DNA from: an uncultured bacterium
GTDB lineage: Bacteria > Hydrothermota > Tepidihabitantia > B3-TA06 > CAYQJV01
NCBI GenBank assembly: GCA_964417925.1
Contig: CAYQJV010000003.1
Location: 13,941 to 77,940 of the forward strand
DNA: 64,000 nt
Reading direction: 5' to 3'
Part shown: positions 4,857 through 31,807 of the stretch, one piece after another
Layout: each line of letters starts with the position of its first letter
How positions within the stretch are numbered: the first letter of the stretch is position 1
Program-made: the position numbers and the translations under genes
The notes under the pieces: model-generated
The model's database searches: none
The model's input: the letters and a program-made list of their open reading frames with translations, nothing else
What the model was told of the DNA's origin: nothing

Positions 4857-5551
4857 AAAAACAGCTTCTCTACGAAGGAAAAGCAAAGAGGATTTACAGT
4901 ACAGAGGAAGATGACCTTATCATCCAAGAGTTTAAAAACTCACTGACTGCCTTTAATGGGAAGAAAAAGGCAGAGATAGAAGAAAAAGGAGCGATAAACT
5001 GTGAGATATCTTCAAGACTTTTTTCTTATCTTGAAAAAAAAGGAATAAAAACTCACTTTGTAAAAAAACTCTCTCCAACTGAAATGCTTGTAAAAAAACT
5101 ACGTATGATTCCCTTAGAGGTTGTGGTGAGAAACCTTGTTACAGGTTCTTTGAAAAAAAGAACGGGTATGAAGGAGGGAGAGGAGCTTTCCAAACCTGTA
5201 ATTGAGTTTTATCTAAAAAACGATGAACTTGGTGATCCGATGTTGAACAAATACCATATACTTACAATGAACATCCTTGGTGAAGAAAGGATAGAGGAAA
5301 TCGTTACAAGAAGTTTTATAATAAATGAATATTTGAAAGAGTTTCTTTTTAAAAGAAATATACTGCTTGTTGATTTTAAACTTGAATATGGGTTTTATAA
5401 TGATGAACTCATGGTTGGGGATGAAATATCCCCTGATACCTGTAGATTTTGGGACAAGGATACAAAAGAAAGTTTGGATAAAGATGTTTTTAGATTTGAT
5501 AAAGGAGATGTGCTAACTGCCTATAGGAAGGTTTTGGAAAGAATAACTTAA
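4853..5551 (+). CDS. purC: Phosphoribosylaminoimidazole-succinocarboxamide synthase (SAICAR synthetase)
   Basis: MKKQLLYEGKAKRIY... is a typical PurC N-terminus. The gene is coupled to purB. Confidence 0.9.
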   Translation: MKKQLLYEGKAKRIYSTEEDDLIIQEFKNSLTAFNGKKKAEIEEKGAINCEISSRLFSYLEKKGIKTHFVKKLSPTEMLVKKLRMIPLEVVVRNLVTGSLKKRTGMKEGEELSKPVIEFYLKNDELGDPMLNKYHILTMNILGEERIEEIVTRSFIINEYLKEFLFKRNILLVDFKLEYGFYNDELMVGDEISPDTCRFWDKDTKESLDKDVFRFDKGDVLTAYRKVLERIT

Positions 5552-6580
5552 ATGGTAGAAATAGATGGTTCTTATGGAGAAGGAGGAGGACAGATCCTAC
5601 GCACTTCCCTTGCTCTTTCTGCAATTACTGGTAAGGGTTTCAGAATATACAATATAAGAAAAAAAAGGAAAATCCCAGGACTGCTTCCCCAACATCTTAC
5701 AGCAGTAAATGCAGCAAAAAAGATGACAGATGCAGAAACAAAAGGAGCAGAACTTTACTCTTCCGAACTCATGTTTGCCCCCAAGGGAATCAAAGGAGGT
5801 GTTTTTGAATTTGATGTAGCAGAAGAACGAAGAAGTGCAGGTTCTGTGACCCTGGTGTATCAAACGGTTTTCCCAATAGCATTGTTTGCAGATAAAAGAT
5901 GTAGAATAGTGGTGAAAGGTGGAACCCATGTTCCAATGAGTCCATTGTATGAATATTTTGATGAAGTTTTCCTTGAACTCCTTAAAAGGCTTTTTTCGGT
6001 AAATGTAAAGAGAAGGCTCATAAGGCATGGTTTTTATCCAAAAGGAGGGGGGAAGGTTGAAATTGAAGTAGAGCCTATTAAAAAGTTTAAACTCATAGAT
6101 GAAGATTTTACAAAGAGAAGGTCCCTAAAGAGCAAAAGAATAAAGATATGCATATCCTCTTTACCAGATCATGTGAAGGAGAGAGAAAAAAGAGTTTTAA
6201 AGAGTTGTATTCCAGAGCCAATAGAAATTGAAGAAATAAAACTTAATCTTGATCCTGGTAATTATATTTTTTTAAAACTTGAATTTGAAAATACTATAGC
6301 AGGATTTTCTTCGCTGGGGATGAAGGGAAAACCGGCAGAGAAGGTTGCAGAGGAGGTATGTAAGGCTTATAAAAGTTATATAAGTAAAGATGTCTTGTTT
6401 GATTCTCATCTTGCAGATCAGATTCTACTGTTTTTTTCTCTTTCTCAAAAAGATACAGTTTTTACAATTCAAGAACCTACCAAACACCTTTTAACAAATG
6501 CCTGGGTAATAGAGAAGTTTCTTAATGTTAAGATAAAAATAGAAAAGGATAGAGTATCTATTTATCATGGAAAAGAATAG
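5552..6580 (+). CDS. rtcA: RNA 3'-terminal phosphate cyclase
   Basis: [36 protein letters not shown] is the RtcA N-terminal signature. Confidence 0.85.
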
Positions 6581-7238
6581 AAACTACGAAATGCTTAAAA
6601 AAATTGCATTGGAAGGTGGGGCATGTTGTTTTAGGGTGGCAGATATAAGAAGAATAAAGTACAACTACCTCCTACCAAAGGAAGCTGTAGAACAGCTTGA
6701 CTATGGTATATCAATAGCTGTAAGGCTGTCCAGTTCTGTGCTTTCTACCATTGTAAATCATCCTACAAAGATATACTTCCATCACTACAGGACTGTGAAC
6801 TATGCCTTGGACCAGATTGCATTAAAGATAACCGACAAAATACAGAGATTGGGATATAAAGCTCTTCCAGTACCTGCTTCTCAAACCATAGACTGGGAGA
6901 ACCAGAAAGCAGATTTTTCCCATAAAAAGGTAGCGGTTCTTGCAGGGATAGGATGGCTTGGGAGAAACAACCTTGTGGTACATCCAAAGTATGGAGCTCA
7001 AATAAGACTTGTGACAGTGCTTACTGATATGCCTTTAAAGGTAGATTCACCTTTAAACATGAACTGCAGAAACTGTAGAAAATGTATTCAGGTATGTCCT
7101 GTTGGAGCAATTCATGAAACTCCCCAACAGTTTGAGCATCAAACTTGTTATGAGGCTCTCAAAAATTTTGTAAAAAAAGGTTATACTGGGCAATACATAT
7201 GTGGAATATGTGTGAGGGTATGTGACGGAAAGATTTAA
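6567..7238 (+). CDS. QueG-like (epoxyqueuosine reductase family) 4Fe-4S protein, short form
   Basis: AGIGWLGRNNLVVHPKYG is a QueG-like motif. It is followed by the ferredoxin-type motif CRNCRKCIQVCPVGAI and a second Cys cluster. At 223 aa it lacks the C-terminal part of canonical QueG. Confidence 0.5.
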   Translation: MEKNRNYEMLKKIALEGGACCFRVADIRRIKYNYLLPKEAVEQLDYGISIAVRLSSSVLSTIVNHPTKIYFHHYRTVNYALDQIALKITDKIQRLGYKALPVPASQTIDWENQKADFSHKKVAVLAGIGWLGRNNLVVHPKYGAQIRLVTVLTDMPLKVDSPLNMNCRNCRKCIQVCPVGAIHETPQQFEHQTCYEALKNFVKKGYTGQYICGICVRVCDGKI

Positions 7239-10110: not shown

Positions 10111-12953
10111 ATAAAAAAGGGATATTTTCTCTCTTCTACTTATGTGTTAAAGATAAACTTAAAAAAATTACTCCCTTTAAAAACACAATAAAAGTAAGGG
10201 ACTGTCCCAATAGTTCCTTTTCCTTTTTTCTCTTAGCGGTTGAAAAATATCTTTCCTCTCCTGTGGTGTATTGTGGTAAGGAGGATGAGATAATCCTTAT
10301 AGGAGAAGACCTAAGAGATATAGCCAGGGAAGTTTTTGTAGTGGGGGAGAGGGGTAAACTTTCGATGGTCTCCTGGTTCATTACCAGAAATAAAGGTATA
10401 CTTCTCTTAAACGAGGAACTGCTTGATGAGGGGATAAAGGTTGAAAAGCAAGGAGAGATATACTTGGAACCAGGAGTTAAAATGGAATTTGATTTTTTAA
10501 TTCAATGGCTTTCAGAACATGGATACGAAAATGAAGATATTGTAACAGAGGAAAGAGAGTTTGCAGTAAGAGGTGGAATAGTAGATGTTTATCCTCCTTT
10601 ATATAAAGCTCCTCTGAGGATTGAATTTGAAGGGGATGTTGTATCTTCCATAAGAAGTTTTGACCCTGTTACTCAGAGGTCTTGTAAAAAAGAAAATTTT
10701 GCAGAAATTCCTGTTGTATGTGTAGAGAAGGGAGATAGAACTGTGAAGGAATATCTTGAAGATTTTATAAAAATAAAAAAAGCAGATGAGGGGGTTTCGC
10801 TTGAACTTTACAATCCAGGTGTATTTATGGGAGATTTTGAAGCTATTGGGAAGTTTGCAGAAAAGAATAACCTATCCCTTTACTTTGTGGTTTCAGCAGA
10901 GGGGGCATCAACATACATAAAGAAAAAAATACCATCAGCAAAGGTAGTTGAGGAATTTTTATCCGGTGGTTTTGTGGATTATATCCATAAATATGCGGTG
11001 ATAACGGAAAAAGAACTCTTTGGGAGAACCAAGAAAAAAATACCAAAGGAGTTTAAAGGTTTAACTAAGGATGCACTTTACATGTTAAGGGAGGGGGATT
11101 ATGTGGTGCATATAGACTATGGGATAGGGATTTTCAAAGGAATAAAAAGAATAGATGGGAAAAAAGACTTCATTGAAATTCACTATGCTGAGGAGGATAA
11201 ACTGTTCGTTCCTGTTGAGCATATAGGGTTTATAGATAAATACATAGGGGCTACAGATAAACCTCCCAAACTTACAAGACTTGGTACCACATCCTGGATA
11301 AACACAAAACAAAGGATAAGGAAAAAGATATGGGAGTATGCTGAGAATCTTTTAAAATTATATGCAAAAAGAAAAATTGTAAAAGGACATGCTTTTGGGG
11401 AGCACAAAGAAGAGGCTGAATTTCTTTCCCTTTCCTTCCCTTATGAAGAGACGGCAGATCAACTTAAGGCAATAAAGGATGTAGAAAAAGATATGGAAAA
11501 GGAAAACCCAATGGAAAGAATAGTATGTGGGGACGTAGGGTATGGAAAAACAGAGGTGGCGGTGAGGGCATCTGCAAAAGCAGTGCTTGATGGAAAGCAG
11601 GTATGCATACTGGTTCCCACAACGATTCTTGCATTGCAACATTACCGAACATTTTTATCAAGACTTGCACCATTTCCATTTCGGATAGAGATGCTTTCAA
11701 GAATGGTGCCATCTAAGAAGAGGAGGGAAGTAATTTCAGGAATTGAGAGTGGAAAAGTAGATATTGTGATAGGGACCCATGTCCTTCTTTCTGATAAAAT
11801 AAAATTTAAAGATCTTGGGCTTTTAATAATAGATGAAGAGCATAGATTTGGAGTGAGACAGAAAGAAAGGATTAAGGAGTTAAAAGAAGATATAGATGTA
11901 CTTTATCTCACAGCAACCCCAATTCCAAGAACCCTCTACATGGCTCTCTCAGGGTTGAGAGATATTTCAATCATAACAACCCCTCCCCCTGGAAGAAAAG
12001 ATGTATACACCGAGATTACTTCATGGAATGAAGAGATAATAAAAGAATGGGTTTACAGAGAAAAGGCAAGAGGAGGGCTTGTGTTGTTTATACACAACCG
12101 AATAGAAACATTGCCTCGGGTTAAAAAAAGGCTTGAACAGATCCTTCCAGGAATAAAAATAAGAACTGCCCATGGTAGAATGCCTGAAAACGAACTTGCA
12201 GCAGTTTATGATGACTTCTGCAAAAAGAAGTTTGATATGCTTCTCTCTACTGCAATTGTGGAAGCAGGGATTGATATTCCTGATCTCAATACAATAATTG
12301 TTGATAGGGCTGATACTTTTGGTATCGCGGATCTACATCAGTTAAGAGGGAGAGTTGGAAGAGGTAACAAAAAAGCCTATGCCCTGTTTATAGTTCCCAA
12401 AAGATTAACCGAAGAGGCAAGGAAAAGGATAGCGACAATAAAGATATACTCCTATCTTGGTTCGGGTTTTCAGATTGCTTTAAGAGATATGGAGATAAGA
12501 GGAGCAGGAAACATTCTTGGAACAGAGCAGCACGGACATATTCAACAGATAGGTCTTTCTCTCTATATGAAATTGCTGGAAGAAGCAGTAAAAATACTCA
12601 AGGGAGAAGAGATAAAGAAAGAACCACGACTTGATATAGGGATAAAGGCATTTATTCCTGAATCCTATGTCAAAAGTTCAGAAGATAGAATATCTCTTTA
12701 CAAAAGGATGCTTTCTCTTGAGACACACAACGAAGTAGATGAAATAGAGGAAGAACTCAAGGATAGGTTTGGTCCAATACCTGAAGAGGTGAAGAATATC
12801 TTAAAAATAGCAAGGTTAAAGATAGAGGCTAAGAAAAAAGGGATAGAAAAAATTTATTTTAAGAATAACAGAATAAAAATCTTTACCCCCAAAAAAGTGA
12901 TAGAAAAGGAAGGAAGTTTTGAATCTCTATTATCTCTTGTAAAGAACTTATAG
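10098..12953 (+). CDS. mfd: Transcription-repair coupling factor
   Basis: Superfamily-2 helicase motifs GDVGYGKTEVA, IIDEEHRFGV, LSTAIVEAGIDIP, QLRGRVGR, and the C-terminal Mfd TRG/D7 region. It is a short form (951 aa), as also seen in other thermophile-like taxa. Confidence 0.85.
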   Translation: MDELNKKGIFSLFYLCVKDKLKKITPFKNTIKVRDCPNSSFSFFLLAVEKYLSSPVVYCGKEDEIILIGEDLRDIAREVFVVGERGKLSMVSWFITRNKGILLLNEELLDEGIKVEKQGEIYLEPGVKMEFDFLIQWLSEHGYENEDIVTEEREFAVRGGIVDVYPPLYKAPLRIEFEGDVVSSIRSFDPVTQRSCKKENFAEIPVVCVEKGDRTVKEYLEDFIKIKKADEGVSLELYNPGVFMGDFEAIGKFAEKNNLSLYFVVSAEGASTYIKKKIPSAKVVEEFLSGGFVDYIHKYAVITEKELFGRTKKKIPKEFKGLTKDALYMLREGDYVVHIDYGIGIFKGIKRIDGKKDFIEIHYAEEDKLFVPVEHIGFIDKYIGATDKPPKLTRLGTTSWINTKQRIRKKIWEYAENLLKLYAKRKIVKGHAFGEHKEEAEFLSLSFPYEETADQLKAIKDVEKDMEKENPMERIVCGDVGYGKTEVAVRASAKAVLDGKQVCILVPTTILALQHYRTFLSRLAPFPFRIEMLSRMVPSKKRREVISGIESGKVDIVIGTHVLLSDKIKFKDLGLLIIDEEHRFGVRQKERIKELKEDIDVLYLTATPIPRTLYMALSGLRDISIITTPPPGRKDVYTEITSWNEEIIKEWVYREKARGGLVLFIHNRIETLPRVKKRLEQILPGIKIRTAHGRMPENELAAVYDDFCKKKFDMLLSTAIVEAGIDIPDLNTIIVDRADTFGIADLHQLRGRVGRGNKKAYALFIVPKRLTEEARKRIATIKIYSYLGSGFQIALRDMEIRGAGNILGTEQHGHIQQIGLSLYMKLLEEAVKILKGEEIKKEPRLDIGIKAFIPESYVKSSEDRISLYKRMLSLETHNEVDEIEEELKDRFGPIPEEVKNILKIARLKIEAKKKGIEKIYFKNNRIKIFTPKKVIEKEGSFESLLSLVKNL

Positions 12954-12960
12954 GGTGCTT

Positions 12961-14223
12961 TTAAAAAATATATTTTCTGGGGTCTGTTATCCTTCCTTCA
13001 ATGCATGATGCTGCAACTGTTGCAGGAGAGGCAAGGAATATCTCTGCTTCCTTTGCTCCCATTCTTCCTTTGAAATTTCTATTGGATGTGGAAATCACAA
13101 CCTCTTCCTCTGCGAGAACCCCTTGATGGGCTCCAAGACATGGACCACAACCAGGATTTAAGATAATAGCTCCTGCATCAACCAAGGTTTTTAAAATTCC
13201 TTGCTCCATCGCATCTTTGTACACCTCCCAAGATGCAGGTAGGATCAAAAGTCTAACATCAGAGTGAACCTTCTTGCCCTTAAGAATCTCTGCAGCAACC
13301 TTCAGGTCCTCAAGTCTTCCATTTGTGCATGTGCCTATAAGGCCTTGATTTATCTTTTTCCCTTCCCATTCCTTTACTGGATACACATTATCCACAGTAT
13401 GGGGTACAGCAATTTGAGGTTCTAAGGATGATATATCAAACTCATATATATTTTCATACCTTGCATCAGGATCCGGGAGGATTATTTCATAATCCTTTTG
13501 TGCTCTGTGTTTTATCCATTCAATGGTCTTTTCATCCGGTGCAATAAATGCATTCTTTGCTCCCATTTCTGCTGCCATGTTGGAAAGGACCATTCTGGAA
13601 GAGATAGAAAACTCCTTCACTACATTTCCTGAAAACTCCACTGACTTATATGTTGCTCCATCTGATTTTAACCTCCCTATGATATGGAGTATAACATCCT
13701 TTGCATAAACTCCAGAAGGTAATTTACCCTTTATCTCTATCTTTATACTTTCAGGAACTCTGAGCCATATCTCATCAATTGCCCAGAGTGCTGCAACTTC
13801 ACTCCTTCCTATCCCTGCTGAAAATGCACCAAATGCTCCATAGGTGGTTGTATGAGAATCTGCTCCAAGGATCACAAGTCCAGGGAGTGCAAATCCTTTT
13901 TCAGATAGTACCTGATGGCATATTCCTCCTTGGCTATTTATGTCATAAAAGTTTTTTATACCGTTTTTCTTAACAAATTCTCTTATAATCTTGTGATTTC
14001 TTGCATAATCAATGGATGCAGGAGGAACTACATGGTCAAGCACAATAACAACCTTTGAAGGATCTTTAACCTTTTCTCCCCCCATCTTTGAAAATGTTAG
14101 AGAAATTGATGCAGTGTTGTCATGTGACATCACAAAATCAGGTGATATGTAAACAATATCACCTGATTTTACATCCTTTCCTGCCTTTTTTGAAAGTATC
14201 TTTTCTGCAAAAGTTTTGCCCAT
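12961..14223 (-). CDS. Aconitase-family dehydratase large subunit, LeuC/HACN (archaeal short) type
   Basis: MGKTFAEKIL N-terminus. Motifs GICHQV, GADSHTTT, GTCTNGR, GCGPCLG, SNRNFKGR. There is no LeuD-like small-subunit gene adjacent. Confidence 0.75.
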   Translation of the reverse strand: MGKTFAEKILSKKAGKDVKSGDIVYISPDFVMSHDNTASISLTFSKMGGEKVKDPSKVVIVLDHVVPPASIDYARNHKIIREFVKKNGIKNFYDINSQGGICHQVLSEKGFALPGLVILGADSHTTTYGAFGAFSAGIGRSEVAALWAIDEIWLRVPESIKIEIKGKLPSGVYAKDVILHIIGRLKSDGATYKSVEFSGNVVKEFSISSRMVLSNMAAEMGAKNAFIAPDEKTIEWIKHRAQKDYEIILPDPDARYENIYEFDISSLEPQIAVPHTVDNVYPVKEWEGKKINQGLIGTCTNGRLEDLKVAAEILKGKKVHSDVRLLILPASWEVYKDAMEQGILKTLVDAGAIILNPGCGPCLGAHQGVLAEEEVVISTSNRNFKGRMGAKEAEIFLASPATVAASCIEGRITDPRKYIF

Positions 14224-14225
14224 TT

Positions 14226-14804
14226 TTACCCCCTGAAAGGTTCAAAGTTGACAAAATCAGCATGATGAACTATTATTGCTTCAATTGTTCTTTTAACAAA
14301 CTCTCCTTCTTTTGAATGAGAAGATATAATGTGAATAACCTGAGCAGGAAGCCCTACCTTATAGGCTATTCCAGCTCCTGAGATGGGATGTCTTATCATC
14401 TCCCCGTTTTTGCTTTTTTTATAACTGTGTTCGTTCTTTTCGTATTCAAGTAATTTCCCTACATCATGTAATAAAGCTCCTGCGATAAGGTAGTCTCTGT
14501 TGATTTTTACTTTATCTTTATACATTTCTTCCAATACCTCTGCTATCTTTAATGCAGTCTTGGTAACAGCCTTTGTATGTTCTATCAAGCTGAAAGGAGC
14601 AGGTTTTATAAGAAGGGTAAATGGAATCTTTTCAAGCTCATCAGGGGTAAAACATGATTCCTCTATTGCGATCTTCCAGCATTCTATTACTTTTTCTTTT
14701 AACTCATTATCCTTTATTTCTTCTATCTCTGGGAAAAGAGATTTTATTCTTTCCTTTAATTTATTCATCATGTAGTTCTCCTGTGTATTTACAAGTTGTT
14801 GCAT
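14226..14804 (-). CDS. HD-domain phosphohydrolase
   Basis: HD motif AGALLHDVGK and a downstream HHADF. The annotated start overlaps the upstream gene, so the real start is probably an internal Met. Confidence 0.65.
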   Translation of the reverse strand: MQQLVNTQENYMMNKLKERIKSLFPEIEEIKDNELKEKVIECWKIAIEESCFTPDELEKIPFTLLIKPAPFSLIEHTKAVTKTALKIAEVLEEMYKDKVKINRDYLIAGALLHDVGKLLEYEKNEHSYKKSKNGEMIRHPISGAGIAYKVGLPAQVIHIISSHSKEGEFVKRTIEAIIVHHADFVNFEPFRG

Positions 14805-15534
14805 CTATCTTTCTCATGGGTTTTTGAGTTGTCTGTTCTTCATAAATATGAGCAACGAGTCCTGGAGTTCTTGCCATGATAAAAAATGCGTTACCTATTT
14901 CAGGTGGAAATCCAAGCTCACACAAAAGTGCTGCAATTGCTCCATCAACATTTACAGGAAGTTCCTTTCCTTTTAATTTTTTTATTGCATTCTTTATCAA
15001 CAGAGCTATTTTCACATAATCTCCGTAAAATCCCTGTTCTTCTGCAATTTTAAATAGTTTTTGGGTTCTGGGATCGTTGGTATGGTATCTATGTCCAAAA
15101 CCAAAAAGTTTTTCTTTTTTTTCAAGTTTTTCTTTTACGTACTCTTCTGTGGACTGCTCAAGAGATTTCTGTTCCTGTTGGCTCTTTCTTTTTATATCAA
15201 GATAATGTTTCATTGCACCTTCAATTGCTCCTCCATGATAGTTGTAGATTGCAAGTATTCCAGCAGCAAGCGAGGAATGCAGAGGGTTGCCTGTAGATGC
15301 AACGGTCCTTGCTGTAATGGTTGATGGAGGAGTAACTCCATGGTCAATTGAGGATAAGAGGATTGCATCAAGAATTTTCCGAATTCTTTCATCAGGAAGC
15401 TTACCAGTAAGGACAAGATATATTCCATCAACAAAACCGATTTCTCCCATTAATTTATCTATTCGGTATCCTCTAACATATATTTTATTCGGTTCAACTT
15501 TTGTGATTTTCGTTTCCCAGTAATGTTCGTTCAT
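14761..15534 (-). CDS. Short citrate-synthase-like protein (citryl-CoA lyase-like, catalytic domain only)
   Basis: Citrate synthase C-terminal domain signatures: SSIDHGVTPPSTITARTVASTGNPLHSSLAAGI, GFGHRYHTNDPR, FFIMARTPGLVAHIYEE. At 257 aa it has the length of CCL-type proteins. Confidence 0.7.
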   Translation of the reverse strand: MNEHYWETKITKVEPNKIYVRGYRIDKLMGEIGFVDGIYLVLTGKLPDERIRKILDAILLSSIDHGVTPPSTITARTVASTGNPLHSSLAAGILAIYNYHGGAIEGAMKHYLDIKRKSQQEQKSLEQSTEEYVKEKLEKKEKLFGFGHRYHTNDPRTQKLFKIAEEQGFYGDYVKIALLIKNAIKKLKGKELPVNVDGAIAALLCELGFPPEIGNAFFIMARTPGLVAHIYEEQTTQKPMRKIDATTCKYTGELHDE

Positions 15535-15543
15535 TTTCCCCCC

Positions 15544-16158
15544 TCATTTTTCAAGGACTTTTCTTATTTCAGAGAGAAGATGACTTGGACTTTTTATTGG
15601 GGATTCAATATTTTCCAAGATCTCCTCTGCAGATTTTGTCTTTATTGTTAATCCCTTTAATCTTTCATAAAGTGTATTTTTATCCACGGGAAAGTCAACT
15701 CCTTTTATTCTCCTCAGCACTTCAACACTCCAAGTAATTCCGAGACTTTCAGAAGCCTGTTGAAATGCGTGTATGAATACGGTTAAATTATCCCTTCCTT
15801 CTTTTATTTCTTTATAAGCAAGTTTTGCAAGCCCTCCTGCTGTGTGGGCTTTAATTGTTTTTTCCTGTAATTCTCCTTCTATTTTCTTCATTACAAGTTC
15901 TGGATCTGCTCTTAAGATATTCCTAACAGTCTGTCTTGTTAAACCAAGGAATTCTGCTATTTCATCTTCTGTTTTGTAGGACTCCTCAGAAAGGACAATT
16001 GCATAGGATGCCTCCATTAAACTTGTTATCCAGGTAAGATTTCGTAGTTCAATCAACTTTCTTGGTCCTCCCAGTAATTCAAGGGCTTTTAAAAAAACTC
16101 TTATTGCAGTTGCATCTACATCAAACTCCCTTATTTCTTCAGGTTTGATTACCGGCAT
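15544..16158 (-). CDS. Putative HTH-domain transcriptional regulator
   Basis: Probable helix-turn-helix DEIAEFLGLTRQTVRNILR. It is the first gene of the minus-strand CCL-like/HD/aconitase-like operon. The start is most likely the ATG at 16158 preceded by GGAGG. The ORF track extends to a GTG at 16164. Confidence 0.4.
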   Translation of the reverse strand: MPVIKPEEIREFDVDATAIRVFLKALELLGGPRKLIELRNLTWITSLMEASYAIVLSEESYKTEDEIAEFLGLTRQTVRNILRADPELVMKKIEGELQEKTIKAHTAGGLAKLAYKEIKEGRDNLTVFIHAFQQASESLGITWSVEVLRRIKGVDFPVDKNTLYERLKGLTIKTKSAEEILENIESPIKSPSHLLSEIRKVLEK

Positions 16159-16216
16159 CTTCACCTCCGTTTTTAAGTTATTATACTTTGCTGTATTCCT
16201 ATGTCAATATTCTTAT

Positions 16217-16244
16217 TTGACATAATACCTATGAGGGGTATAAT
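16217..16244 (+). promoter_or_regulatory. Consensus sigma70 promoter TTGACA-16-TATAAT for small ORF 16264
   Basis: TTGACA at 16217-16222, 16-nt spacer, TATAAT at 16239-16244. AGGAGGAGG SD at 16255-16263. The 7-bp inverted repeat ATGTCAA (16201-16207) / TTGACAT (16217-16223) overlaps the -35. Confidence 0.45.
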
Positions 16245-16263: not shown

Positions 16264-16485
16264 ATGGAAAAACTCAAGAGATACGGATGGGTGTTTGTGG
16301 TAGTTATGTTGGGAGTTGCAGGTGGTTATGCAATAGCCAGAGCAGAATGGGATTCTTCGGGTTCCTCTTCCTCTGACAGTTATACCCTTAAAAGAATAGA
16401 GAATCATCTTGAAAATATATCTGAAGAATTGAAAGAACTTAACCGTATTCTCAGAGATATAAAAGATGAGATTAACAATAGATAA
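16264..16485 (+). CDS. Small single-pass membrane protein with C-terminal coiled coil (FtsB/DivIC-like architecture)
   Basis: MEKLKRYGWVFVVVMLGVAGGYAIA (TM), a Ser-rich linker, then the heptad-like RIENHLENISEELKELNRILRDIKDEINNR. It has a strong SD and a perfect promoter. The ORF track starts at an upstream in-frame codon, 16201. Confidence 0.45.
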   Translation: MEKLKRYGWVFVVVMLGVAGGYAIARAEWDSSGSSSSDSYTLKRIENHLENISEELKELNRILRDIKDEINNR

Positions 16486-18702: not shown

Positions 18703-19997
18703 ATGGGTAAAAAAAAACAGTTGCCATCGTTGGAAGGCCAAATGTAGGAAAATCCACATTATTTAATAGAATTACAAGGAAAAAGATAGCAATTACTCTA
18801 AGAGAGCCGGGAATTACCAGAGATGTAATTGAAGAAGAGTGTGAGTGGCAAAACAAGAAGTTTTTACTTTTAGATACCGGAGGCTATATACCACAGCCAT
18901 CGGATTCCATTTCTGAAAAGGTAAAAAAACAGGTTTTTTATGCTTTACAAAGAGCAGACTTAGTGCTTTTTGTAGTAGATGCAAAGGAAGGAATTCATCC
19001 TCTGGATTTTGAAGTGGCAGAGATTTTGAGAAGGTCAAACAAAGAAGTTATCCTTGTAATAAACAAGATGGATGTGAAGACTGCTTCCTTCAATGTGTGG
19101 GAGTTTACAAGACTCGGTTTTGAAAAAGTTTATAAGGTTTCTGCTGAGCATGGAAAAGGAATAGGAGAGCTTTTGGATGAGATAACCAAAGATATAAAAG
19201 AAGAAAAAGAATTAAATGGAGATAGAATAAATGTGATAATTGTTGGAAGACCAAATGTAGGAAAGTCCACGCTCCTTAATGCATTGGTAAAAGAGGAAAG
19301 AGTTATTGTGGATAATACTCCAGGGACTACAAGGGACCCAGTTAAAGTAGAGAAGGATAAAGAAGGAGTTAAGTTTTCGCTCATAGACACTCCAGGGGTT
19401 AAAAAGAAAAGCAAGATAAAAGATATAGTAGAGTTTCTTTCTTCTAAGAGACTTGAAAAAAGGGTGATGGAAGCAGATGTAGCAGTGGTGGTAATAGATG
19501 CTCAAGAGGGACTCACACATCTTGAAAAGACCATTACCGGATGGTTGCTTGAAGAAGGGAAAGGAGTGATTGTAGTGGTAAATAAGTGTGATCTGTTAAA
19601 GAAAAGGGAAGTTCCTGAAATTGTTCAATATGTAAAAGCCTCTTTGCATTTTGCAAGAAACATTCCCGTAGTCCCAATTTCTGCATTAAAAGAAGAGGGA
19701 TTAGAGAAAATAGAAAATGAAGTTGTAGATGTAGCAAGAGAGAGGAAGAAAAAAATATCTGCTAAAACATTGGAAGAGGTATTTGAGAACATAATTTCTT
19801 CTCATCCTCCGCCAAGAGGAGCGATAATTAAAAGAATAGTGCAGGTTGGTATAGCACCACCGAGTTTTATTATGTTGTCTCCAAAACCTGAGAGAATAGA
19901 GCATTCTTATTTGAGGTACATAAAGAACAGATTATATGATTATTTTGGGTTTAAAGGGGTTGACATAAGAATAACAGTAAAAAGGAAAATAAAATAG
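18703..19997 (+). CDS. der: Ribosome-biogenesis GTPase Der/EngA (tandem GTPase + KH-like), reading frame interrupted in an A9 homopolymer near the start
   Basis: ATG 18703 (MGKKK) runs into a stop at 18745-18747. The -1 frame from 18711 encodes KKTVAIVGRPNVGKSTLFNR (G1) ...DTGG... plus a second GTPase domain (VIIVGRPNVGKSTLLN...DTPG...NKCD) and a KH-like C-terminus. One extra A, or a -1 slip in A9 (18709-18717), gives the canonical MGKKKTVAIVGRPNVGKS. Confidence 0.8.
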
Positions 19998-21750: not shown

Positions 21751-23615
21751 GTATTCTTGAGAGGATAAATTCTCCTGCAGATTTAAAAAAATTGAAACTT
21801 GAAGAGCTTGAAAAACTTACCGGAGAGATAAGGAAAAGAATAATAGAGGTAACCGCAAAAAATGGAGGGCATGTAGCACCGAATCTTGGGGTGGTTGAAC
21901 TTACAATTGCATTACACTATGTGTTTAATGCGCCGCAAGACAAAATAATATGGGATGTAGGGCATCAGTGTTATACCCATAAACTTTTGACTGGCCGAAG
22001 GAAGGCTTTTGAAACTATAAGAAGAAAGGGAGGAATTTCAGGATTTCCCAAAAGAGAGGAGAGTGAATACGATGTTTTTGGAACAGGACATGCAGGAACA
22101 TCATTATCTGCTGCTTATGGAGTTGCAGTGGCACGGGATTTACTTAATGAGAACTACCGGGTAATTGCAGTAATAGGAGATGGTTCTTTGATTTCAGGAA
22201 TGGCACTTGAAGCATTAAACCATATAGGAGCTTCAGGAAAGGATATAATGATAATTCTTAATGACAATGGAATGTCCATTGCAAAAAACCCTGGAGCTAT
22301 TGCTCTTTACCTAAACAGAATAATAACCATGCCTTTTTATAAGAGATTAAGAGCTAAGGTATGGAATTTACTTGGTAAACTTCCTGCAGAAAAAAGGGAT
22401 AGAGCAAGGAGAGTCGCAAGAAAGATAGAGAAGAGAATGAAAGGATTACTTATTCCTGGGGTATGGTTTGAGGAGCTTGGTTTTCATTATTTTGGTCCTC
22501 TTGATGGACATGATTTAAAAGGACTTATATCCTTCTTTAAGAGAATTGAGGACATTCATGGTCCTTTATTGATACATGTGTTGACAAAGAAGGGATATGG
22601 ATTTGAAATTGCCCAGGAGAATCCTGAACTCTTCCATGGAGTTGGTCCTTTTGATTTGAAGTCTTTTGAAATAATAAAGAAGGGTAGTAAAAAGAGTTAT
22701 TCTTCTTTCTTTGGAGAGACTCTTGTTGAATTTGCAGAAAAAGATAAAAGGATAGTTACAATTACTGCTGGAATGTGTCTTGGCACAGGGCTTACGAAGT
22801 TTAGAGAAAGATTTCCCCAAAGGTTCTTTGATATGGGGATAACTGAGGAACACTGTGCTACCTTTGCAGCAGGACTTACCTTGAGGGGTTTGAAGCCGGT
22901 TTTTGCTATTTATTCTACATTTTTACAGAGAGCTTTTGACCAGGTGATACATGATATTGCATTGCAGAAACTTCCGGTTATTTTCTGTATAGATAGAGCA
23001 GGCATTGTAGGAGAGGATGGTCCAACTCATCATGGAACATTTGATATTTCATACTTAAGACTCATACCCAACATAGTGGTTTCTGCTCCAAAAGATGAAG
23101 ATGAATTAAAAGACCTTTTATATACTGCTTTAAACTATGATAAAGGACCTTTTGCATTGAGATATCCAAGAAGTTCTGTAGTCGGAGTTAAAGTAAAAAA
23201 GAGCCCCCAAAAAATTGAGATAGGCAAATGGGAAGTTCTGAAAAAAGGAAGAGATGTGTGTATTCTTGCTGTTGGATCAATGGTATATCCATCTCTTGAA
23301 GCAGCAGAGATTTTGAAAAGATGTGGCATCTCTGCTCAGGTGGTGAATGCAAGATTTATAAAGCCTCTGGATGAGGGAATGCTTGAGGTGATGGCGAGAA
23401 GATTTAAAAAATTGGTAACGGTTGAAGAAAATACCTTAGAAGGTGGTTTTGGAAGCGCAGTATTGGAATTTCTTGAGAAAAAGAAAATAAAGAAGGAGGT
23501 CTTAAGGATAGGTATACCCGATAAATTTATAGAGCATGGTTCAAGGAGTGAGTTACTTTCAGAAATTGGTTTAACAAAGGAGGGTATATCGGAAAAGATT
23601 AGAATGTTTTTATGA
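21747..23615 (+). CDS. dxs: 1-deoxy-D-xylulose-5-phosphate synthase
   Basis: TPP-binding region GHAGTSLSAA...IGDGSLISGMALEALNH, and the transketolase-like middle and C-terminal domains. 622 aa. Confidence 0.9.
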   Translation: MSILERINSPADLKKLKLEELEKLTGEIRKRIIEVTAKNGGHVAPNLGVVELTIALHYVFNAPQDKIIWDVGHQCYTHKLLTGRRKAFETIRRKGGISGFPKREESEYDVFGTGHAGTSLSAAYGVAVARDLLNENYRVIAVIGDGSLISGMALEALNHIGASGKDIMIILNDNGMSIAKNPGAIALYLNRIITMPFYKRLRAKVWNLLGKLPAEKRDRARRVARKIEKRMKGLLIPGVWFEELGFHYFGPLDGHDLKGLISFFKRIEDIHGPLLIHVLTKKGYGFEIAQENPELFHGVGPFDLKSFEIIKKGSKKSYSSFFGETLVEFAEKDKRIVTITAGMCLGTGLTKFRERFPQRFFDMGITEEHCATFAAGLTLRGLKPVFAIYSTFLQRAFDQVIHDIALQKLPVIFCIDRAGIVGEDGPTHHGTFDISYLRLIPNIVVSAPKDEDELKDLLYTALNYDKGPFALRYPRSSVVGVKVKKSPQKIEIGKWEVLKKGRDVCILAVGSMVYPSLEAAEILKRCGISAQVVNARFIKPLDEGMLEVMARRFKKLVTVEENTLEGGFGSAVLEFLEKKKIKKEVLRIGIPDKFIEHGSRSELLSEIGLTKEGISEKIRMFL

Positions 23616-26600
23616 TAAATCTATTCCTTTTATTTTTTATTACGCCGAATTTTTACTCTTACTTGTCTAAGGAGGTAAATATCAGCTATGACTATGGTAT
23701 CGTATTTGAAGAAAAGTGGATTGACTCGGTCTTTCTTGGTATAGAAAGTGTAAAGACCCTGTCTTCCTATCTTGCCCAAAAAACAAGAGAATCCATGGTA
23801 AAGAAGTTTCTATCCCAAACAAAGGAGAGGTTAAAAAAGGAGTCCCTTGGATCCTTGGTTATGGAAGGACTTATCCCTAAGATAGAGATACCGGGTTTTG
23901 AAGAAGAAACTTCTATAGATATCTCCGGATCCGATCAGATCACTGTGGGTATGGGAAGTACTAAATATGCAGAAGGGCAATCTGTATCAATTGAACCGGA
24001 AATGAAGCAGGATATAAAAGTAAAGGTACTTGGAACAATAGCAAGAAAGACCCAGGTAGAGATGGACTACAGTTCTCAGAGGGAGGTGCAGGCGGAAAAT
24101 ACAATAAGAATAACATATCAGGGGGATGAAGATGAGGTGACTGAATATATAAAGGCGGGAGATATATCTTTAACAATGCCAACCACTGTTATGACCGGAG
24201 GACTCCCCACCCATAAAGGACTTTTTGGATTCAGTGGTAAATGGAGGTTTGGCCCTTTAACTCTTTATGCAGTGGCTTCTAAGGAGGAGGCTACCTCTAC
24301 GACTCAAGAGTTTACTCAAGGAATAAATGTAGAGGAAAAAAAGGATTCAATATACGATTATCAATACGAAAAGGAAAGGTTTTTTACCATTCTCAATGAT
24401 TCTATAAAAAAATATCTGGGTGATGATACAATTATTACCGGAGTAGGTGTTTATGTATTTGATTACACAACCCCTGATAGGATTACAAAACCTGCTGTTG
24501 CAACTCCTTATGGAAATCTCTATCCTGAATATAAACCTTACGATTCCAGAGAAGAAATAACAAAAGGTAACTTCTATCCTCTTGTACGAAACGAAGAGTT
24601 TTACTTTCATGAGGGGACAGGAATAATTGAACTTACAAAATCCTTTTATGGAAACTACATTCTCGCGGTTGCATGTACTACCTCTACTGGAAGAAAACTT
24701 TTCAGCTATAATGGAGATACTTTAATCCTTCTTCTTGTATGGCCAGAGAATCCAGATTCATCTCTTATTACGTGGAAAAACGAACTAAGAAATGTTTATT
24801 CTGTTGGAGATGTTAACATTAAAAACTTAAAGATAACCATAGTGAGAATATCTCCAGGAGATGCTACAGAACTTGAGACCGAAGGTCCTGCTAAAGGAAA
24901 ATCTTTTGCAGAAATTCTTGGAATAGATGCTGACGGAGATGGAATGGTGGATGCAAAGTATATGGACCCCTCCAGGGGTCTTGTATGGTTTCCATATAGA
25001 GAACCGTTTAACCATTCTGACCTCTCGGTAAGAGATTCTTCTATTTATCTTACTCGGTATGTTTCGGATCCAAAATATAAAATAATTTTTTCCTATACAC
25101 GACCTCTACAGTATCAACTTCCGGTAGGAATAAAGGAAGGAACAGTAAGAATTTGGGTAAATGGTGAAGAACTTTCTGAGGATGAATTCAGTGTAAATTA
25201 TGCTACAGGAGTGGTTACCATAAAAAGACCTGTGCCAGCAGGTGCTGAGATAAAGATAACTGCTGAGCAGACTCCTTTCTTTATAAACCCCAGAGAAGGA
25301 TCAATAGCAGGAATAAGAGCAGAGACAAAACTTACAGAAGATGCTACGATTGGATGGACCTTTTTATATAGAAATGAGAAGGAAAGGGGAGTAATAAGAC
25401 CGACCATAGGATCAGAACCGTATAGTAGAGCAATAACTGCTCTTGATCTTAAAATAGATAAAGAACTCGGGGGAATTACAGAGTTTCTTGATAGACTCCC
25501 TCTTATAAGTACTGATGAACCATCTACGATAAATTTTGAGACCGATGTAGGTATTTCAATGCCAAATCCCAACACTATGGGGACAGCCTACATTGAAGAT
25601 TTTGAAGGAATTGAGGAGAGCGATGAGCTGGTAATAACTAAGAGATGGTATCCTCCAAGTATTCCTGTTTCCAAGGACTCTGCTATAGAGACATATTCAA
25701 GGAGAAGACCACAGATAGATGTGGTGACCATAAATAAAAGGGATGTGTTTGGTGAGGTTACAGGTGATGTGTTCCAGAATCTTCAGGATGTCTTAAGAAT
25801 TGTATATACTCCAGAAGATAGTACACGGTGGAGTGGAATAATGACTGCTCTTGTCGGAGGAGAGGTTTTCGATATCACAGATAAAGATAACTTGGAGTTT
25901 ATATTTAAAACAGATGCAAAAAAAGGTAGAATCTATATAGATTTTGGTTCAGATATAGATGAAGATATGCTTCGGCTGGATAAAGATGGAAATATAAGAG
26001 GATTGGATACCTTGGATACAGAGGATAAAAATGGAAATATGATGTTAAATTTAGGGGAAGATACAGGACTGGATGGTATTGCTGGAAAGGATGGTGAGGA
26101 GGTTGCAGGAGATGATGGAAATGATGATTATGATGAGAAAACAAATCTCATGGGTACTGAGGGGAATGGAATGCTTGATACCGAAGATATTGACCAGGAC
26201 TGGGGTTGGAATGGTGGGAGTTTTACAAGAAACGATTATTATGAGGTAATGATAGATCTGGAAAAAGAAAGTGAGTATATTGAGGAACTTGAAAATGGAT
26301 GGAAGCTTCTCAGGATACCTCTTTCTGATTCATCTGCTTATAAAAAATTCGGGAGTCCCCAGGCTAAACTTATTAATGAATTCAGAGTGTGGTTTGAAGG
26401 AATGGAGGGAGTTGACACGCTTTATATTTACTCTTTAAAGTTCCAAGGCACGGTGTGGAAAGGCCTATCGGTGTATAAAGAAGACACCACCTCTGAAGAG
26501 CCGGATACCACAGAGAAGGTCTCTATTGCCCCAGTGAATAGAGAAATTGACCCTGAGTATACTTCTCCTTTTAAGCTAAGAAAAGACATAAGTGGACAGT

Positions 26601-29790: not shown

Positions 29791-30744
29791 TTGCTTACAG
29801 CTTTGTCTTTGTTTTTTATCTTTTATTTTGATGTATTTGAGAAAGAGGGAGAAGAAGAAATAAAAATAAGGATTGAAAAAAACCTTTCCGCAAAGAAAAT
29901 AGCAAAATATCTTAAGCAAAAAGGAGTGATAAAAAGAGAACTACTATTCCTTGTTTTTGCAAAAATAACAGGAAAAGAAGATGAAATAAAGGCAGGAGTT
30001 TATAGGCTGAAAAAAAATACAGCAGAGTTTAGGGTTTTATCTTGGGTTTCAAAGGGACGTTTTGAGGGAATAAGGGTGACAATACCAGAGGGATTAACAA
30101 GAGCTGAAATTGCTCATATTCTTTTTCAAAAAAACATTACAGATAGCATTGAATTTATTAGGAAAACAGAGGATAGAAAGTTACTTAGGAAATACAGAAT
30201 CCCTTTCTCCTCCTTCGAAGGTTTTTTATTTCCCGATACCTACATATTTTTTGAAGACACTCCAGCAGAAAGAGTTATTTCAAAAATGGTTGAGAGATTT
30301 TTTGAAGTTTATGAGGAGATAGGAGGGAAGATGGAGAATTTAGATACTGTAGTTATTCTTGCATCTATTGTAGAGAAAGAAGCATTCTTTGAAAGTGAGA
30401 AGCCAATAATTGCCTCTGTTTACTGGAATAGGCTTAAAAAACATATGCGTCTTGAAGCAGACGTTACCGTTCAATATGCTCTTGGAAAGCATAAGAAAAG
30501 ACTTACATATGCTGATTTGAGGATAAACTCTCCTTATAATACATATCTTCATCCAGGACTTCCTCCTGGACCAATATGCTCTCCTGGAGAAAAATCTCTT
30601 GAAAGCGTGATAAATCCAGCAAGAACAGATTATCTGTATTTTGTTGCAAAGGGTGATGGAAGTCATATTTTTTCAAAAACCTTAGCAGAACATGAAAGGA
30701 ATAGAAAAAAATTAAGAAAAAAAAGGAGAAGATATGGAATATAA
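29791..30744 (+). CDS. mltG: Endolytic murein transglycosylase MltG (YceG family)
   Basis: N-terminal TM segment. YceG-like motifs PEGLTRAEIAHIL, YNTYLHPGLPPGPICSPGEKSLESVINP. Confidence 0.8.
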   Translation: MLTALSLFFIFYFDVFEKEGEEEIKIRIEKNLSAKKIAKYLKQKGVIKRELLFLVFAKITGKEDEIKAGVYRLKKNTAEFRVLSWVSKGRFEGIRVTIPEGLTRAEIAHILFQKNITDSIEFIRKTEDRKLLRKYRIPFSSFEGFLFPDTYIFFEDTPAERVISKMVERFFEVYEEIGGKMENLDTVVILASIVEKEAFFESEKPIIASVYWNRLKKHMRLEADVTVQYALGKHKKRLTYADLRINSPYNTYLHPGLPPGPICSPGEKSLESVINPARTDYLYFVAKGDGSHIFSKTLAEHERNRKKLRKKRRRYGI

Positions 30745-31807
30745 AATTCTTGTAATAAATCCTGGAGGGGGATCAACAAAAATAGCCTATTATGAAGATG
30801 AAAATGAGATAAGAAAGGAAACCATAAGGCATTCCCCAGAGGAACTTTCAAAGTTCCCCAATACTCTTTCTCAGCTCCCATACAGGAAAAGGATGATAGA
30901 GGTAAAACTTGCTGAATGGGGGATAGAAATATCTTCCCTCTCTGCTGTGGTTGGAAGAGGTGCTCCTTTAAAACCCCTTGAAAGCGGAACATACATTGTT
31001 AATGATAAGATGGTTCAGGATATAAAAGAGGGAAGAGTTCAAGCAGATCACCCTTCAAATTTAGGGGCTTTACTTGCAAAGGAGTTTGCTGATCCATATG
31101 GCATTCCTGCATTTATTGTAGACCCTGTTTCTGTTGATGAGTTTATTCCTGAGTCAAGAATTTCAGGGTTACCTGAGATAGAAAGGAAGAGTCTTTCGCA
31201 TGCGTTAAATATAAAGATGGTTGCAAGAAAGGCAGCAGAAGAAATGGGCAAAAAATATGAAGAACTCAATATGGTAGTTGTTCACCTTGGGACTGGAATA
31301 TCAGTGGGAGCACACAGGAAAGGTAAACAAATAGATGTAAACAATGCAAATGATGGAGGTCCTTTTTCTCCCCAAAGAACAGGTTCCCTTCCTGTTACTC
31401 AGCTTGTAAAGTTATGCTATTCGGGTAGATACACTGAAAAGCAGATGATAGAAAAGCTTACAAAGAAAGGAGGACTTTTAGCGTATCTTGGAACAGATGA
31501 TATTTCCGAAGTTGAGAAAAGAATAGACAGTGGAGATGAGTATGCAAAGCTTATTTATTCGGCAATGATAATACAGATTGCAAAGGAGATAGGCGCAATG
31601 TCTGCGGTTCTTGAGGGTGATGTTGATTGTATTGTAATTACAGGTGGTATGGCTCATTCTGAAAGGGTAGTTAATGAGATAAAAAAGAAAATAAAATTTA
31701 TAACAAAAAAAATCTTTGTATACCCAGGGGAAAACGAACTTGAAGCACTTGCCCTTGGGGCTTTGAGAGTTCTAAGAAAAGAAGAGGAGGCAAAGAATTA
31801 TGAGTGA
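30734..31807 (+). CDS. buk: Butyrate/branched-chain acyl kinase (acetate/butyrate kinase family)
   Basis: MEYKILVINPGGGSTKIAYYEDENE...HLGTGISVGAH...ITGGMAHSE. Confidence 0.8.
   Translation: MEYKILVINPGGGSTKIAYYEDENEIRKETIRHSPEELSKFPNTLSQLPYRKRMIEVKLAEWGIEISSLSAVVGRGAPLKPLESGTYIVNDKMVQDIKEGRVQADHPSNLGALLAKEFADPYGIPAFIVDPVSVDEFIPESRISGLPEIERKSLSHALNIKMVARKAAEEMGKKYEELNMVVVHLGTGISVGAHRKGKQIDVNNANDGGPFSPQRTGSLPVTQLVKLCYSGRYTEKQMIEKLTKKGGLLAYLGTDDISEVEKRIDSGDEYAKLIYSAMIIQIAKEIGAMSAVLEGDVDCIVITGGMAHSERVVNEIKKKIKFITKKIFVYPGENELEALALGALRVLRKEEEAKNYE

Follow-up and report, generated by a model that had tools for sequence, protein, structure and literature searches.

A four-gene operon in a 64,000-nucleotide stretch of DNA from an uncultured Hydrothermota bacterium (GenBank assembly GCA_964417925.1, contig CAYQJV010000003.1, positions 13,941 to 77,940; the whole stretch is called the window, and its positions are counted from the first letter) represents a trimmed version of an unstudied but widespread cluster of genes with which anaerobic microbes make or split citrate. 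The operon encodes a helix-turn-helix (HTH) protein, a citryl-CoA lyase (CCL), an HD-domain protein (HD) and the large subunit of a LeuC-type Fe-S dehydratase (AcnL). We give a probability of about 60% to its being part of a citrate-node module with biosynthetic flow to 2-oxoglutarate and with partners encoded elsewhere in the genome. Each gene comes from a known family, as the first-pass annotation had proposed and as Pfam and NCBIfam profiles bear out, and the chemistry is that of the known citrate cleavage by citryl-CoA synthetase (CCS) and CCL, plus aconitase. The variant features are the translationally coupled HD partner, the LeuCD-type aconitases, often in two copies, and the trimming of the cluster in this lineage. 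The four genes are:

12961-14223, minus strand: AcnL, LeuC-type Fe-S dehydratase large subunit, 420 aa
14226-14771, minus strand: HD/HDIG metal-dependent hydrolase, 181 aa from the ATG at 14771 (longest open reading frame (ORF) 14226-14804)
14761-15534, minus strand: CCL, 257 aa
15544-16164, minus strand: HTH protein, 206-aa ORF, 204 aa from the probable start ATG at 16158

Linkage of the HD protein to citrate genes

In many phyla, the HD gene is faithfully associated with citrate genes. Genome and metagenome collections were scanned with patterns derived from the HD alignment alone, and neighbours within 10 kb were recorded; all counts of HD loci refer to samples among the matches listed. A citrate-node gene lies within 10 kb in 35 of 44 non-redundant loci with full-length HD relatives, in 22 of 25 loci with at least 3 kb on both flanks, and in none of 123 control loci (1.56 Mb) with more distant HD relatives. 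Genes near HD in the 44 loci include AcnL (26), Iso_dh-family dehydrogenases (18), CCL (11) and CitE/F (11), and the immediate neighbour of HD is AcnL in 18 loci, CCL in 8, Iso_dh in 8 and CitF in 6. The carriers belong to Vulcanimicrobiota, Anaerolineae, Marinimicrobia, Synergistaceae, Acidobacteriota, Planctomycetota, Veillonellaceae, Methanomicrobia, Thermoplasmatota and Heimdallarchaeota. Citrate is the sole common element of all HD contexts. Full-text searches of the literature gave no paper in which an HD protein is connected with clusters of CCL, CCS, citrate lyase or aconitase.

HD matches PF01966 with 58.5 bits (cut-off 22) and TIGR00277 with 57 bits (cut-off 27.6). Its subfamily, of about 177 aa, is well conserved and comprises at least 2742 clusters at E ≤ 1e-5. 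Among 34 sequences, H65, D103, H128, H152 and D172 never vary, and H102, K106 and H170 vary rarely if at all, H102 and H170 being at least 90% conserved. The predicted ligand set corresponds to the six-ligand pattern typical of two-metal HD enzymes and, together with the HDxGK motif, suggests a phosphohydrolase. The best guess is that it acts on a cofactor or effector, of nucleotide or CoA type, that belongs to the citrate node. HD is not a member of a characterised subfamily (YhaM, YqeK, YfbR, PgpH, HD-GYP, PhnZ etc.), and the family has no curated model and no close solved structure. In a fold comparison it is phosphohydrolase-like with the YhaM HD domain as the nearest match, which gives no further clue to function.

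Two other roles for HD were set aside. Replacement of the missing small subunit of the dehydratase does not agree with the all-helical HD fold, and most clusters retain the small subunit. Hydrolysis of a citryl thioester would waste ATP beside CCS and would inactivate citrate lyase (CitDEF). A broader proposal, which we hold tentatively and below even odds, is that HD is an unrecognised required component of anaerobic citrate metabolism in Bacteria and Archaea. Its clusters would then mark an unstudied route in which citrate synthase and aconitase are replaced by CCL with CCS (or CitF) and by one or two LeuCD-type 'half-aconitases'. HD would catalyse a new reaction, or would serve to maintain or regulate the citrate node, for instance by processing of a CoA or nucleotide cofactor, removal of oxaloacetate or servicing of the Fe-S dehydratase. 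The route would save the citryl-CoA thioester as ATP or, in reverse, would be a redox-neutral conversion of glutamate to acetyl-CoA and oxaloacetate.

Related clusters in other lineages

CCL, HD and the large subunit are the core of a widespread gene cluster, found in Acidobacteriota, Chloroflexota, Planctomycetota, Synergistota, Thermoplasmatota and Heimdallarchaeota. The order of the full cluster is CCSβ-CCSα-CCL-HD-AcnL-AcnS-IsoDH (AcnS, small subunit; IsoDH, Iso_dh-family dehydrogenase), often with a second LeuCD-like pair. For example, an Acidobacteria/Aminicenantes-type locus (L004) encodes CCSβ of 516 aa (ATP-grasp and citrate-binding domains), CCSα of 301 aa, CCL, HD, AcnL of 418 aa, AcnS of 168 aa and Iso_dh of 374 aa, and the window proteins are 57% (CCL), 49% (HD) and 66% (AcnL) identical to their counterparts in it. 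A 3.3-Mb genome contig (L087) has the same seven-gene order followed by a second LeuCD-like pair, L003 has CCSβ-CCSα-CCL-HD only, and loci of Anaerolineales, Planctomycetales and Heimdallarchaeota have the gene set in other orders. CCS is located directly upstream of CCL in L003, L004, L012 and L087, and the CCS beta subunit of the related loci carries the citrate-binding domain of ATP-citrate lyase (PF16114). In L004, the CCS beta subunit (5530-7080) also carries a tail at its C-terminus that holds two Cys clusters, CKRCEEKPCIAEC and CIECLACEIAC, and looks like a 2x[4Fe-4S] ferredoxin domain; to our knowledge, such a tail is no feature of the Hydrogenobacter CCS.

In several HD clusters CitDEF takes the place of CCS and CCL. 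The order is GntR-HD-AcnLS-AcnLS-Iso_dh-CitD-CitE-CitF in Synergistaceae (L014), where an aminotransferase and a FAA_hydrolase-family gene lie upstream, CitD/E-CitF-HD-fused Acn ... Iso_dh in Marinimicrobia (L010), and CitD/E-CitF-HD-AcnLS-Iso_dh-AcnLS in a metagenome locus (L098). In a Veillonellaceae locus (L019) and in L103, HD occurs with CitDEF and DASS-type (CitMHS-like) transporters. The genes citC, citX and citG, which normally belong to citrate lyase loci, were not seen among the annotated neighbours at these five loci with HD and CitD/E/F. A further locus, L105 (9941-14558), has HD-CitF-CCL-fused Acn without CitD and CitE, which suggests a citrate:acetyl-CoA CoA-transferase and CCL as an ATP-independent citrate-cleaving pair.

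The nearest species-level relative among the matches listed, L007, has exactly CCL-HD-AcnL followed by a convergent mfd gene, as in the window, with identities of 72% (CCL), 61% (HD) and 81% (AcnL). At this locus there is no small subunit gene and no HTH gene. A metagenome locus, L093, has obg-HEAT-HD-AcnL followed by two L-serine dehydratase subunits, also without a small subunit. Adjacency of HD and AcnL is seen in the window, in L007 and L093 and in 15 further loci across bacterial and archaeal phyla. In the window itself, a tblastn search with related-cluster proteins matched only CCL, HD and the large subunit; CCSβ, CCSα, small subunit, Iso_dh, CitE, CitF and the second ('type A') LeuCD-like pair were not found in the 64 kb.

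The first-pass annotation had remarked on the lack of an adjacent small subunit, and the search extends this to the whole window, as it does for the SucCD-like CCS and Iso_dh partners whose presence had been left to be checked. The same annotation had described the operon as an orphan that it could not map to a characterised pathway. This description has to be given up, since the trio found in L007 and across phyla is a conserved core, to which the full form adds CCS, the small subunit and Iso_dh. The operon looks orphaned because the cluster is trimmed here, not because it is a new pathway.

Citryl-CoA lyase

CCL matches only the C-terminal half of the Pfam Citrate_synt profile (162-355 of 357) and exceeds the cut-offs of the NCBIfam citryl-CoA lyase (EC 4.1.3.34) model NF004869 (280.2 bits, cut-off 212), of NF004866 (261.6 bits, cut-off 245) and of NF004868 (204.5 bits, cut-off 193). 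The citryl-CoA lyase architecture earlier proposed for the 257-aa protein is thus right. Over 242 positions it is 49.6% identical to 6HXP, the structure of CCL of Hydrogenobacter thermophilus (PMC13147460). Residues 3-252 align with residues 2-246 of the 268-aa 6HXP chain, where YHGGA, GFGHRY, NVDG and DPR are matched by identical residues and the Arg of MAR aligns with Arg in GRV. We take YHGGA, GFGHRY and NVDG to be the counterparts of His274, His320 and Asp375 of pig citrate synthase. The arginines in DPR, MAR and MRK, each of which aligns with Arg or Lys in the H. thermophilus enzyme, are presumably the oxaloacetate/citrate-binding ones of citrate synthase. The two motifs quoted at first pass, GFGHRYHTNDPR and HGVTPPSTITARTVASTG, are present.

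The protein is a full-length short enzyme made of the citrate synthase catalytic domain only. A fragment or pseudogene of citrate synthase, considered earlier as a possible refutation, is ruled out by the full-length matches to the CCL models and to 6HXP; the gene upstream encodes the unrelated HTH protein.

There are at least 7134 CCL relatives at E ≤ 1e-10 among the candidates scored. Two of them, L091 and L092 (7577-10768), with 63-68% identity, directly follow metK and ahcY, and HD, CCS or aconitase genes were not found near them. The metK-ahcY site is a second, unexplained context of stand-alone short citrate-synthase-like enzymes.

Large and small subunits of the dehydratase

AcnL matches Pfam Aconitase (PF00330) over its full length with 367 bits and exceeds the cut-offs of NF001614 (590.5 bits, cut-off 385), TIGR02086 (578.7 bits, cut-off 410) and TIGR01343 (573.6 bits, cut-off 386). 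It fails the LeuC equivalog TIGR02083 (LEU2; 506.8 bits, cut-off 610.65) and the methanogen homoaconitase NF040615 (HacA_Meth; 521.4 bits, cut-off 550). The Fe-S cysteines noted at first pass are in place, one in GTCTNG and two in PGCGPCLG, and they align with those of 4KP1, the large subunit of the isopropylmalate/citramalate isomerase of Methanocaldococcus jannaschii, to which AcnL is 50.5% identical. Scores against the M. jannaschii isomerase and homoaconitase large subunits are 431 and 399 bits. The large subunits of citrate clusters fall into two kinds, 'type B', found beside the HD gene, and 'type A', the second copy. AcnL has 55-81% identity to large subunits encoded after HD in other phyla and 34-43% to the second copies, and is predicted from these matches to be an archaeal-type LeuC/HacA-family [4Fe-4S] dehydratase large subunit of type B.

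Small subunits from related clusters found no match in the 64-kb window by tblastn. In most other phyla the small subunit adjoins AcnL; it is not beside AcnL in the relatives L007, L093 and L089. The cluster small subunits align over their full length with the solved M. jannaschii ones, including the GSSRE motif, whose serine we take to be the catalytic serine of aconitase. Their specificity loops are FPGKYTYT in type B and FHNRYLAIT in type A, and the loops of solved proteins are PARYLVYT (isomerase MJ1277), PGPYLRTT (homoaconitase MJ1271) and PGRYNLT (Pyrococcus LeuD).

Two distinct LeuCD-like pairs are present in most of the complete clusters (L012, L014, L016, L017, L020, L021, L087, L098, L107 and L109). 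Within a cluster they have 34-43% mutual identity and distinct small-subunit loops, and the two copies might divide the two half-reactions of aconitase between them. A pair occurs as one fused protein of 600-656 aa in L010, L017 and L018, and in L010 and L018 the specificity loop of the fused form (GKYTY) resembles type B. No published description of LeuCD-type aconitases was found in full-text searches of the literature.

Operon structure and the HTH gene

All four minus-strand ORFs are present at the listed positions, packed and co-directional as earlier described. The HTH stop and the CCL start are 9 nt apart, the end of CCL overlaps the start of HD by 11 nt when HD starts at 14771, AcnL starts 2 nt past the HD stop, and the AcnL stop lies 7 nt from that of the convergent mfd gene. 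The ATG at 14771 is the most likely HD start (181 aa), because GGAG lies 7 nt upstream, an independent gene call in L001 agrees and so do the homologue lengths. The 11-nt overlap recurs in L003 and L090. The HTH ATG at 16158 is preceded by GGAGGTG. The four-gene stretch was recovered in independent assemblies of two sequencing runs, and the operon is therefore not an assembly artefact. Two promoters are predicted, both as consensus matches only:

16207-16180, minus strand: predicted promoter TTGACA-16-TATAAT, 12/12 match to the sigma-70 consensus, 16-22 nt upstream of the HTH start
16217-16244, plus strand: second predicted promoter, 12/12 match to the sigma-70 consensus, back-to-back with the minus-strand site

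The plus-strand site faces a class II-type ribonucleotide reductase gene and a small predicted membrane protein (likely Met start near 16264). Prediction of intrinsic terminators gave none 3' of AcnL, and an Rfam scan of the window gave no riboswitch near the operon; Rfam and tRNA scans of the window gave a single tRNA-Val and nothing else.

The HTH protein matches TIGR03879, the 'near-KaiC' regulatory domain, with 120.4 bits (cut-off 65.1), and its Pfam HTH matches are weak. Homologues of 65-76% identity occur in WOR-3, Hydrothermae, Caldipriscus, Thermotogae, Thermodesulfatator and others, and the family is more conserved than the neighbouring operon enzymes. At four loci (L173-L176, two homologues, 71-75% identity) the gene directly follows a KaiC-like ATPase of PF06745; a KaiC-like ATPase was not found in the 64-kb window by tblastn. 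The HTH gene is lacking at the nearest related loci, L007 and L093. The proposal that this protein is the dedicated regulator of the pathway is rejected in view of the pairing with KaiC-like ATPases elsewhere, the family conservation and the lack of the gene at the nearest relatives. The gene is probably co-transcribed here with the enzyme genes, and it may have come into the operon by a local accident of gene order.

The citrate node and alternative explanations

The shared substrate of the clusters is most likely citrate, judging from the families present, in agreement with the citrate- or homocitrate-like tricarboxylate suggested at first pass. The strongest argument is that CitDEF and CCS/CCL, which are mechanistically different, occupy the same place beside HD, Acn and Iso_dh, which points to citrate as the metabolite they share. 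CCL would interconvert citryl-CoA with acetyl-CoA and oxaloacetate, and a CCS or CitF-like CoA-transferase encoded elsewhere would convert citryl-CoA to citrate. AcnL would form a two-subunit LeuCD-type aconitase (citrate to isocitrate and back) with a small subunit that would have to be encoded elsewhere, because the GSSRE motif sits on the small subunit in this family. HD would be a conserved accessory metallo-hydrolase of the module, and an Iso_dh encoded elsewhere would complete the link to 2-oxoglutarate. The complete module, as it occurs in other phyla, also includes CCS (or CitDEF replacing CCS/CCL), the small subunit and an Iso_dh-family dehydrogenase, and this gene set would connect acetyl-CoA and oxaloacetate to 2-oxoglutarate through citrate.

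The likely flow is from acetyl-CoA and oxaloacetate to citryl-CoA, citrate, isocitrate and 2-oxoglutarate, for glutamate-family biosynthesis. This direction is favoured because it is thermodynamically easy and mirrors the citrate synthase-aconitase-isocitrate dehydrogenase operons. CCS working in reverse could conserve ATP, and such conservation by ATP-citrate lyase is said to have been described by Möller et al. in 1987 for Desulfobacter postgatei. The host is probably an anaerobic, WOR-3-like peptide fermenter; the lifestyle genes of the window encode an indolepyruvate-type 2-oxoacid:ferredoxin oxidoreductase, an aminotransferase, an aldehyde dehydrogenase and a SprA-like type IX secretion protein.

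Several observations weigh against this explanation. The module is incomplete here, as CCS, CitF, the small subunit and Iso_dh are not in the 64-kb window; HD occurs at times without a nearby citrate gene (L011, L022 and L088); and the CCL relatives at the metK-ahcY site are accompanied by neither HD nor CCS. The identity of AcnL to M. jannaschii isopropylmalate isomerase (50.5%) is on a par with that to some relatives of type B, and the type B loop FPGKYTYT is unlike those of all three solved small subunits compared. The closeness of AcnL to the homoaconitase cut-off, the best matches of Iso_dh and the scores of the fused Acn proteins, all discussed below with homocitrate, point the same way, and the CitDEF loci with transporters argue for cleavage over synthesis.

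Flow in the reductive direction would take 2-oxoglutarate, derived from glutamate, through isocitrate and citrate to acetyl-CoA or acetate and oxaloacetate. It would serve the redox-neutral fermentation of glutamate or, in autotrophs, the arm for citrate cleavage in the reductive form of the tricarboxylic acid cycle (rTCA cycle). We regard this as somewhat unlikely, yet as a serious rival because of the CitDEF/transporter loci and the peptide-fermenting lifestyle. In several HD clusters CCS/CCL gives way to CitDEF, physiologically an enzyme of cleavage, at times together with citrate-type transporters, and the FAA_hydrolase family represented upstream in L014 next to an aminotransferase includes oxaloacetate decarboxylases. 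Most carriers are anaerobes that degrade protein, and genes for both an aminotransferase and a 2-oxoacid:ferredoxin oxidoreductase are present in the window. CCS/CCL itself is the known citrate-cleaving system of the rTCA cycle, and reductive carboxylation of 2-oxoglutarate is, on the other side, uphill by about +12 kJ/mol (table, PMC13147460). The CCS route would moreover cost a fermenter one ATP. In the window, 2-oxoglutarate synthase, fumarate reductase and CCS were not identified, its single 2-oxoacid:ferredoxin oxidoreductase (31800-34140) having the indolepyruvate-type architecture, and literature searches gave no published account of such a glutamate route.

It is improbable that the substrate is homocitrate or another homologue, with CCL-like and CCS/CitF-like enzymes that form or cleave homocitryl-CoA (acetyl-CoA and 2-oxoglutarate), homoaconitase pairs and a homoisocitrate dehydrogenase linking 2-oxoglutarate with 2-oxoadipate. 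The cluster Iso_dh does score best against homoisocitrate dehydrogenase models (AksF2_Meth, 354 bits), but every Iso_dh equivalog score is under its cut-off; the window AcnL reaches 521 of the 550 bits set for HacA_Meth; and the fused Acn of L010 and L018, with their type B-like GKYTY loop, exceed the cut-off of the 'homoaconitase' model TIGR00139 (849 and 774 vs 530). Against homocitrate stand the CCL scores above curated CCL cut-offs, the Arg/Lys matches of the putative oxaloacetate/citrate-binding arginines in the H. thermophilus enzyme, the ordinary CitD/E/F and citrate-type transporters in the same clusters and the citrate-binding domain PF16114 of CCS beta. Lysine-pathway genes of the LysW/X/Y/Z type were seen in none of the loci examined. 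Slightly less probable still is that the genes share no pathway, AcnL being the housekeeping LeuC of leucine synthesis with leuD and leuB at other sites in the genome, CCL a stand-alone short citrate synthase or a relic and HD an unrelated housekeeping hydrolase, brought together by genome compaction. The identity of AcnL to a proven isopropylmalate/citramalate isomerase, the occurrence of CCL relatives alone in unrelated contexts and the lack of the small subunit, CCS and Iso_dh in the window would fit, and in M. jannaschii the large and small subunit genes are presumably likewise non-adjacent, as we take from their locus numbers (MJ0499/MJ1277 and MJ1003/MJ1271). Yet the TIGR02083 score of AcnL (507) is well below 611, HD is next to AcnL not only in the window but also in L007, in L093 and in 15 other loci across bacterial and archaeal phyla, and the control set gave 0 of 123. 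At the HD-AcnL loci there is no leuB-type gene beyond the cluster Iso_dh (tblastn) and no leuA-type gene among the annotated neighbours, and the 11-nt CCL/HD overlap is shared with L003 and L090. A housekeeping LeuC thus appears disfavoured by the sub-threshold equivalog score and the conserved synteny of HD with citrate genes.

Other features of the window

The operon (window 12000-16000) lies as an island on the minus strand in 49 kb of genes that otherwise run on the plus strand. Both GC skew and AT skew change sign at 12000-16000 and again after about 50 kb, tracking the coding strand; the flips are purine loading of the coding strand and no evidence for a replication landmark.

The start of der (engA) seems frameshifted at 18703-18720. 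Nine A in a row (18709-17) come after ATG-GGT at 18703-18708, and the G1 motif (GRPNVGKS) is in a different frame without ATG, GTG or TTG before it; a single additional A would bring this ATG into frame with Der. Probably the homopolymer was misassembled; a genuine slippery start is a lesser possibility.

An ORF of 1813 aa (23612-29053) has a match to SprA_N (type IX secretion/gliding), which points to the FCB superphylum and agrees with the WOR-3/Hydrothermae names of the HTH homologues. At 30734-34140, an acetate/butyrate-kinase-like gene is followed by the indolepyruvate-type 2-oxoacid:ferredoxin oxidoreductase, whose alpha subunit has POR_N, TPP and Fer4 domains and whose beta subunit has a POR domain; these genes fit amino-acid fermentation. 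A 577-aa ORF (49070-50803) with LytB/IspH (3-275) and a UbiA prenyltransferase domain (310-534) is, by its domain matches, an apparent unusual fusion of the last enzyme of the MEP pathway with a membrane prenyltransferase. A 508-aa protein (53165-54691) consists of a response-regulator receiver domain fused to a PglZ domain.

Implications

Many uncultured anaerobes, including Aminicenantes and other Acidobacteriota, Anaerolineae, Marinimicrobia, Synergistota, WOR-3, Thermoplasmatota and Heimdallarchaeota, are scored for 'rTCA carbon fixation' on CCL/CCS matches. If the clusters represent a citrate node of heterotrophs, such calls mislead. The clusters hold two candidate enzyme types of central metabolism, the LeuCD-type aconitases and an Iso_dh claimed by no curated model. 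The operon is ordinary in its parts, and the linkage of HD to citrate is the real lead: at 35/44 vs 0/123 loci it rivals that of many named pathway genes, although the protein is annotated only as 'HD domain'. Definition of its role would give a further component to a part of metabolism that is among the most thoroughly studied.

Comparison with known systems

The two-enzyme citrate cleavage of H. thermophilus is carried out by CcsAB and Ccl (Aoshima et al. 2004, as cited in PMC13147460). The window CCL resembles this Ccl in being short and confined to the C-terminal domain, with 49.6% identity to 6HXP, and in related loci it directly follows a SucCD-like CCS with a citrate-binding domain. In contrast to the H. 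thermophilus system, CCS is not in the window, the carriers are mostly anaerobic heterotrophs and not Aquificota autotrophs, and the adjoining aconitase is of LeuCD type instead of AcnA/AcnB. CCL is translationally coupled to HD, a protein tied to CCL or CCS in none of the rTCA papers retrieved, and the CCS beta of L004 has its extra C-terminal ferredoxin-like tail.

AcnL shares fold, length and Fe-S ligands with the M. jannaschii hydro-lyases (MJ0499/MJ1277, 4KP1 and 3VBA; MJ1003/MJ1271, 4KP2 and 2PKP). It differs in lying under both curated equivalog cut-offs, and the small-subunit loop of the clusters, FPGKYTYT, is different. The cluster genes lie beside citrate-cleaving enzymes and not beside leuA/leuB or aks genes, and the window is without a small subunit.

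Compared with the HD domain of the 3'-5' exoribonuclease YhaM (9H3F), the window protein is an HD domain alone, in a gene neighbourhood that is metabolic and not RNA-related. Classical citrate lyase loci of E. coli, Klebsiella and lactic acid bacteria comprise citCDEFXG, a citrate transporter and oxaloacetate decarboxylase. The HD gene is not part of these classical loci, and the window has CCL in place of CitDEF; in several lineages, however, the HD subfamily is found beside CitD, CitE and CitF and DASS-type (CitMHS-like) transporters.

Operons for citrate synthase, aconitase and isocitrate dehydrogenase supply 2-oxoglutarate in anaerobes and Bacillus. Unlike these, the clusters have CCL and CCS in place of citrate synthase, by which the energy of the thioester could be stored as ATP, and a LeuCD-type pair, or two of them, in place of aconitase; their dehydrogenase is below all curated equivalog cut-offs, and HD is an addition. 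Like them, the full cluster covers the same three steps, from acetyl-CoA and oxaloacetate to 2-oxoglutarate.

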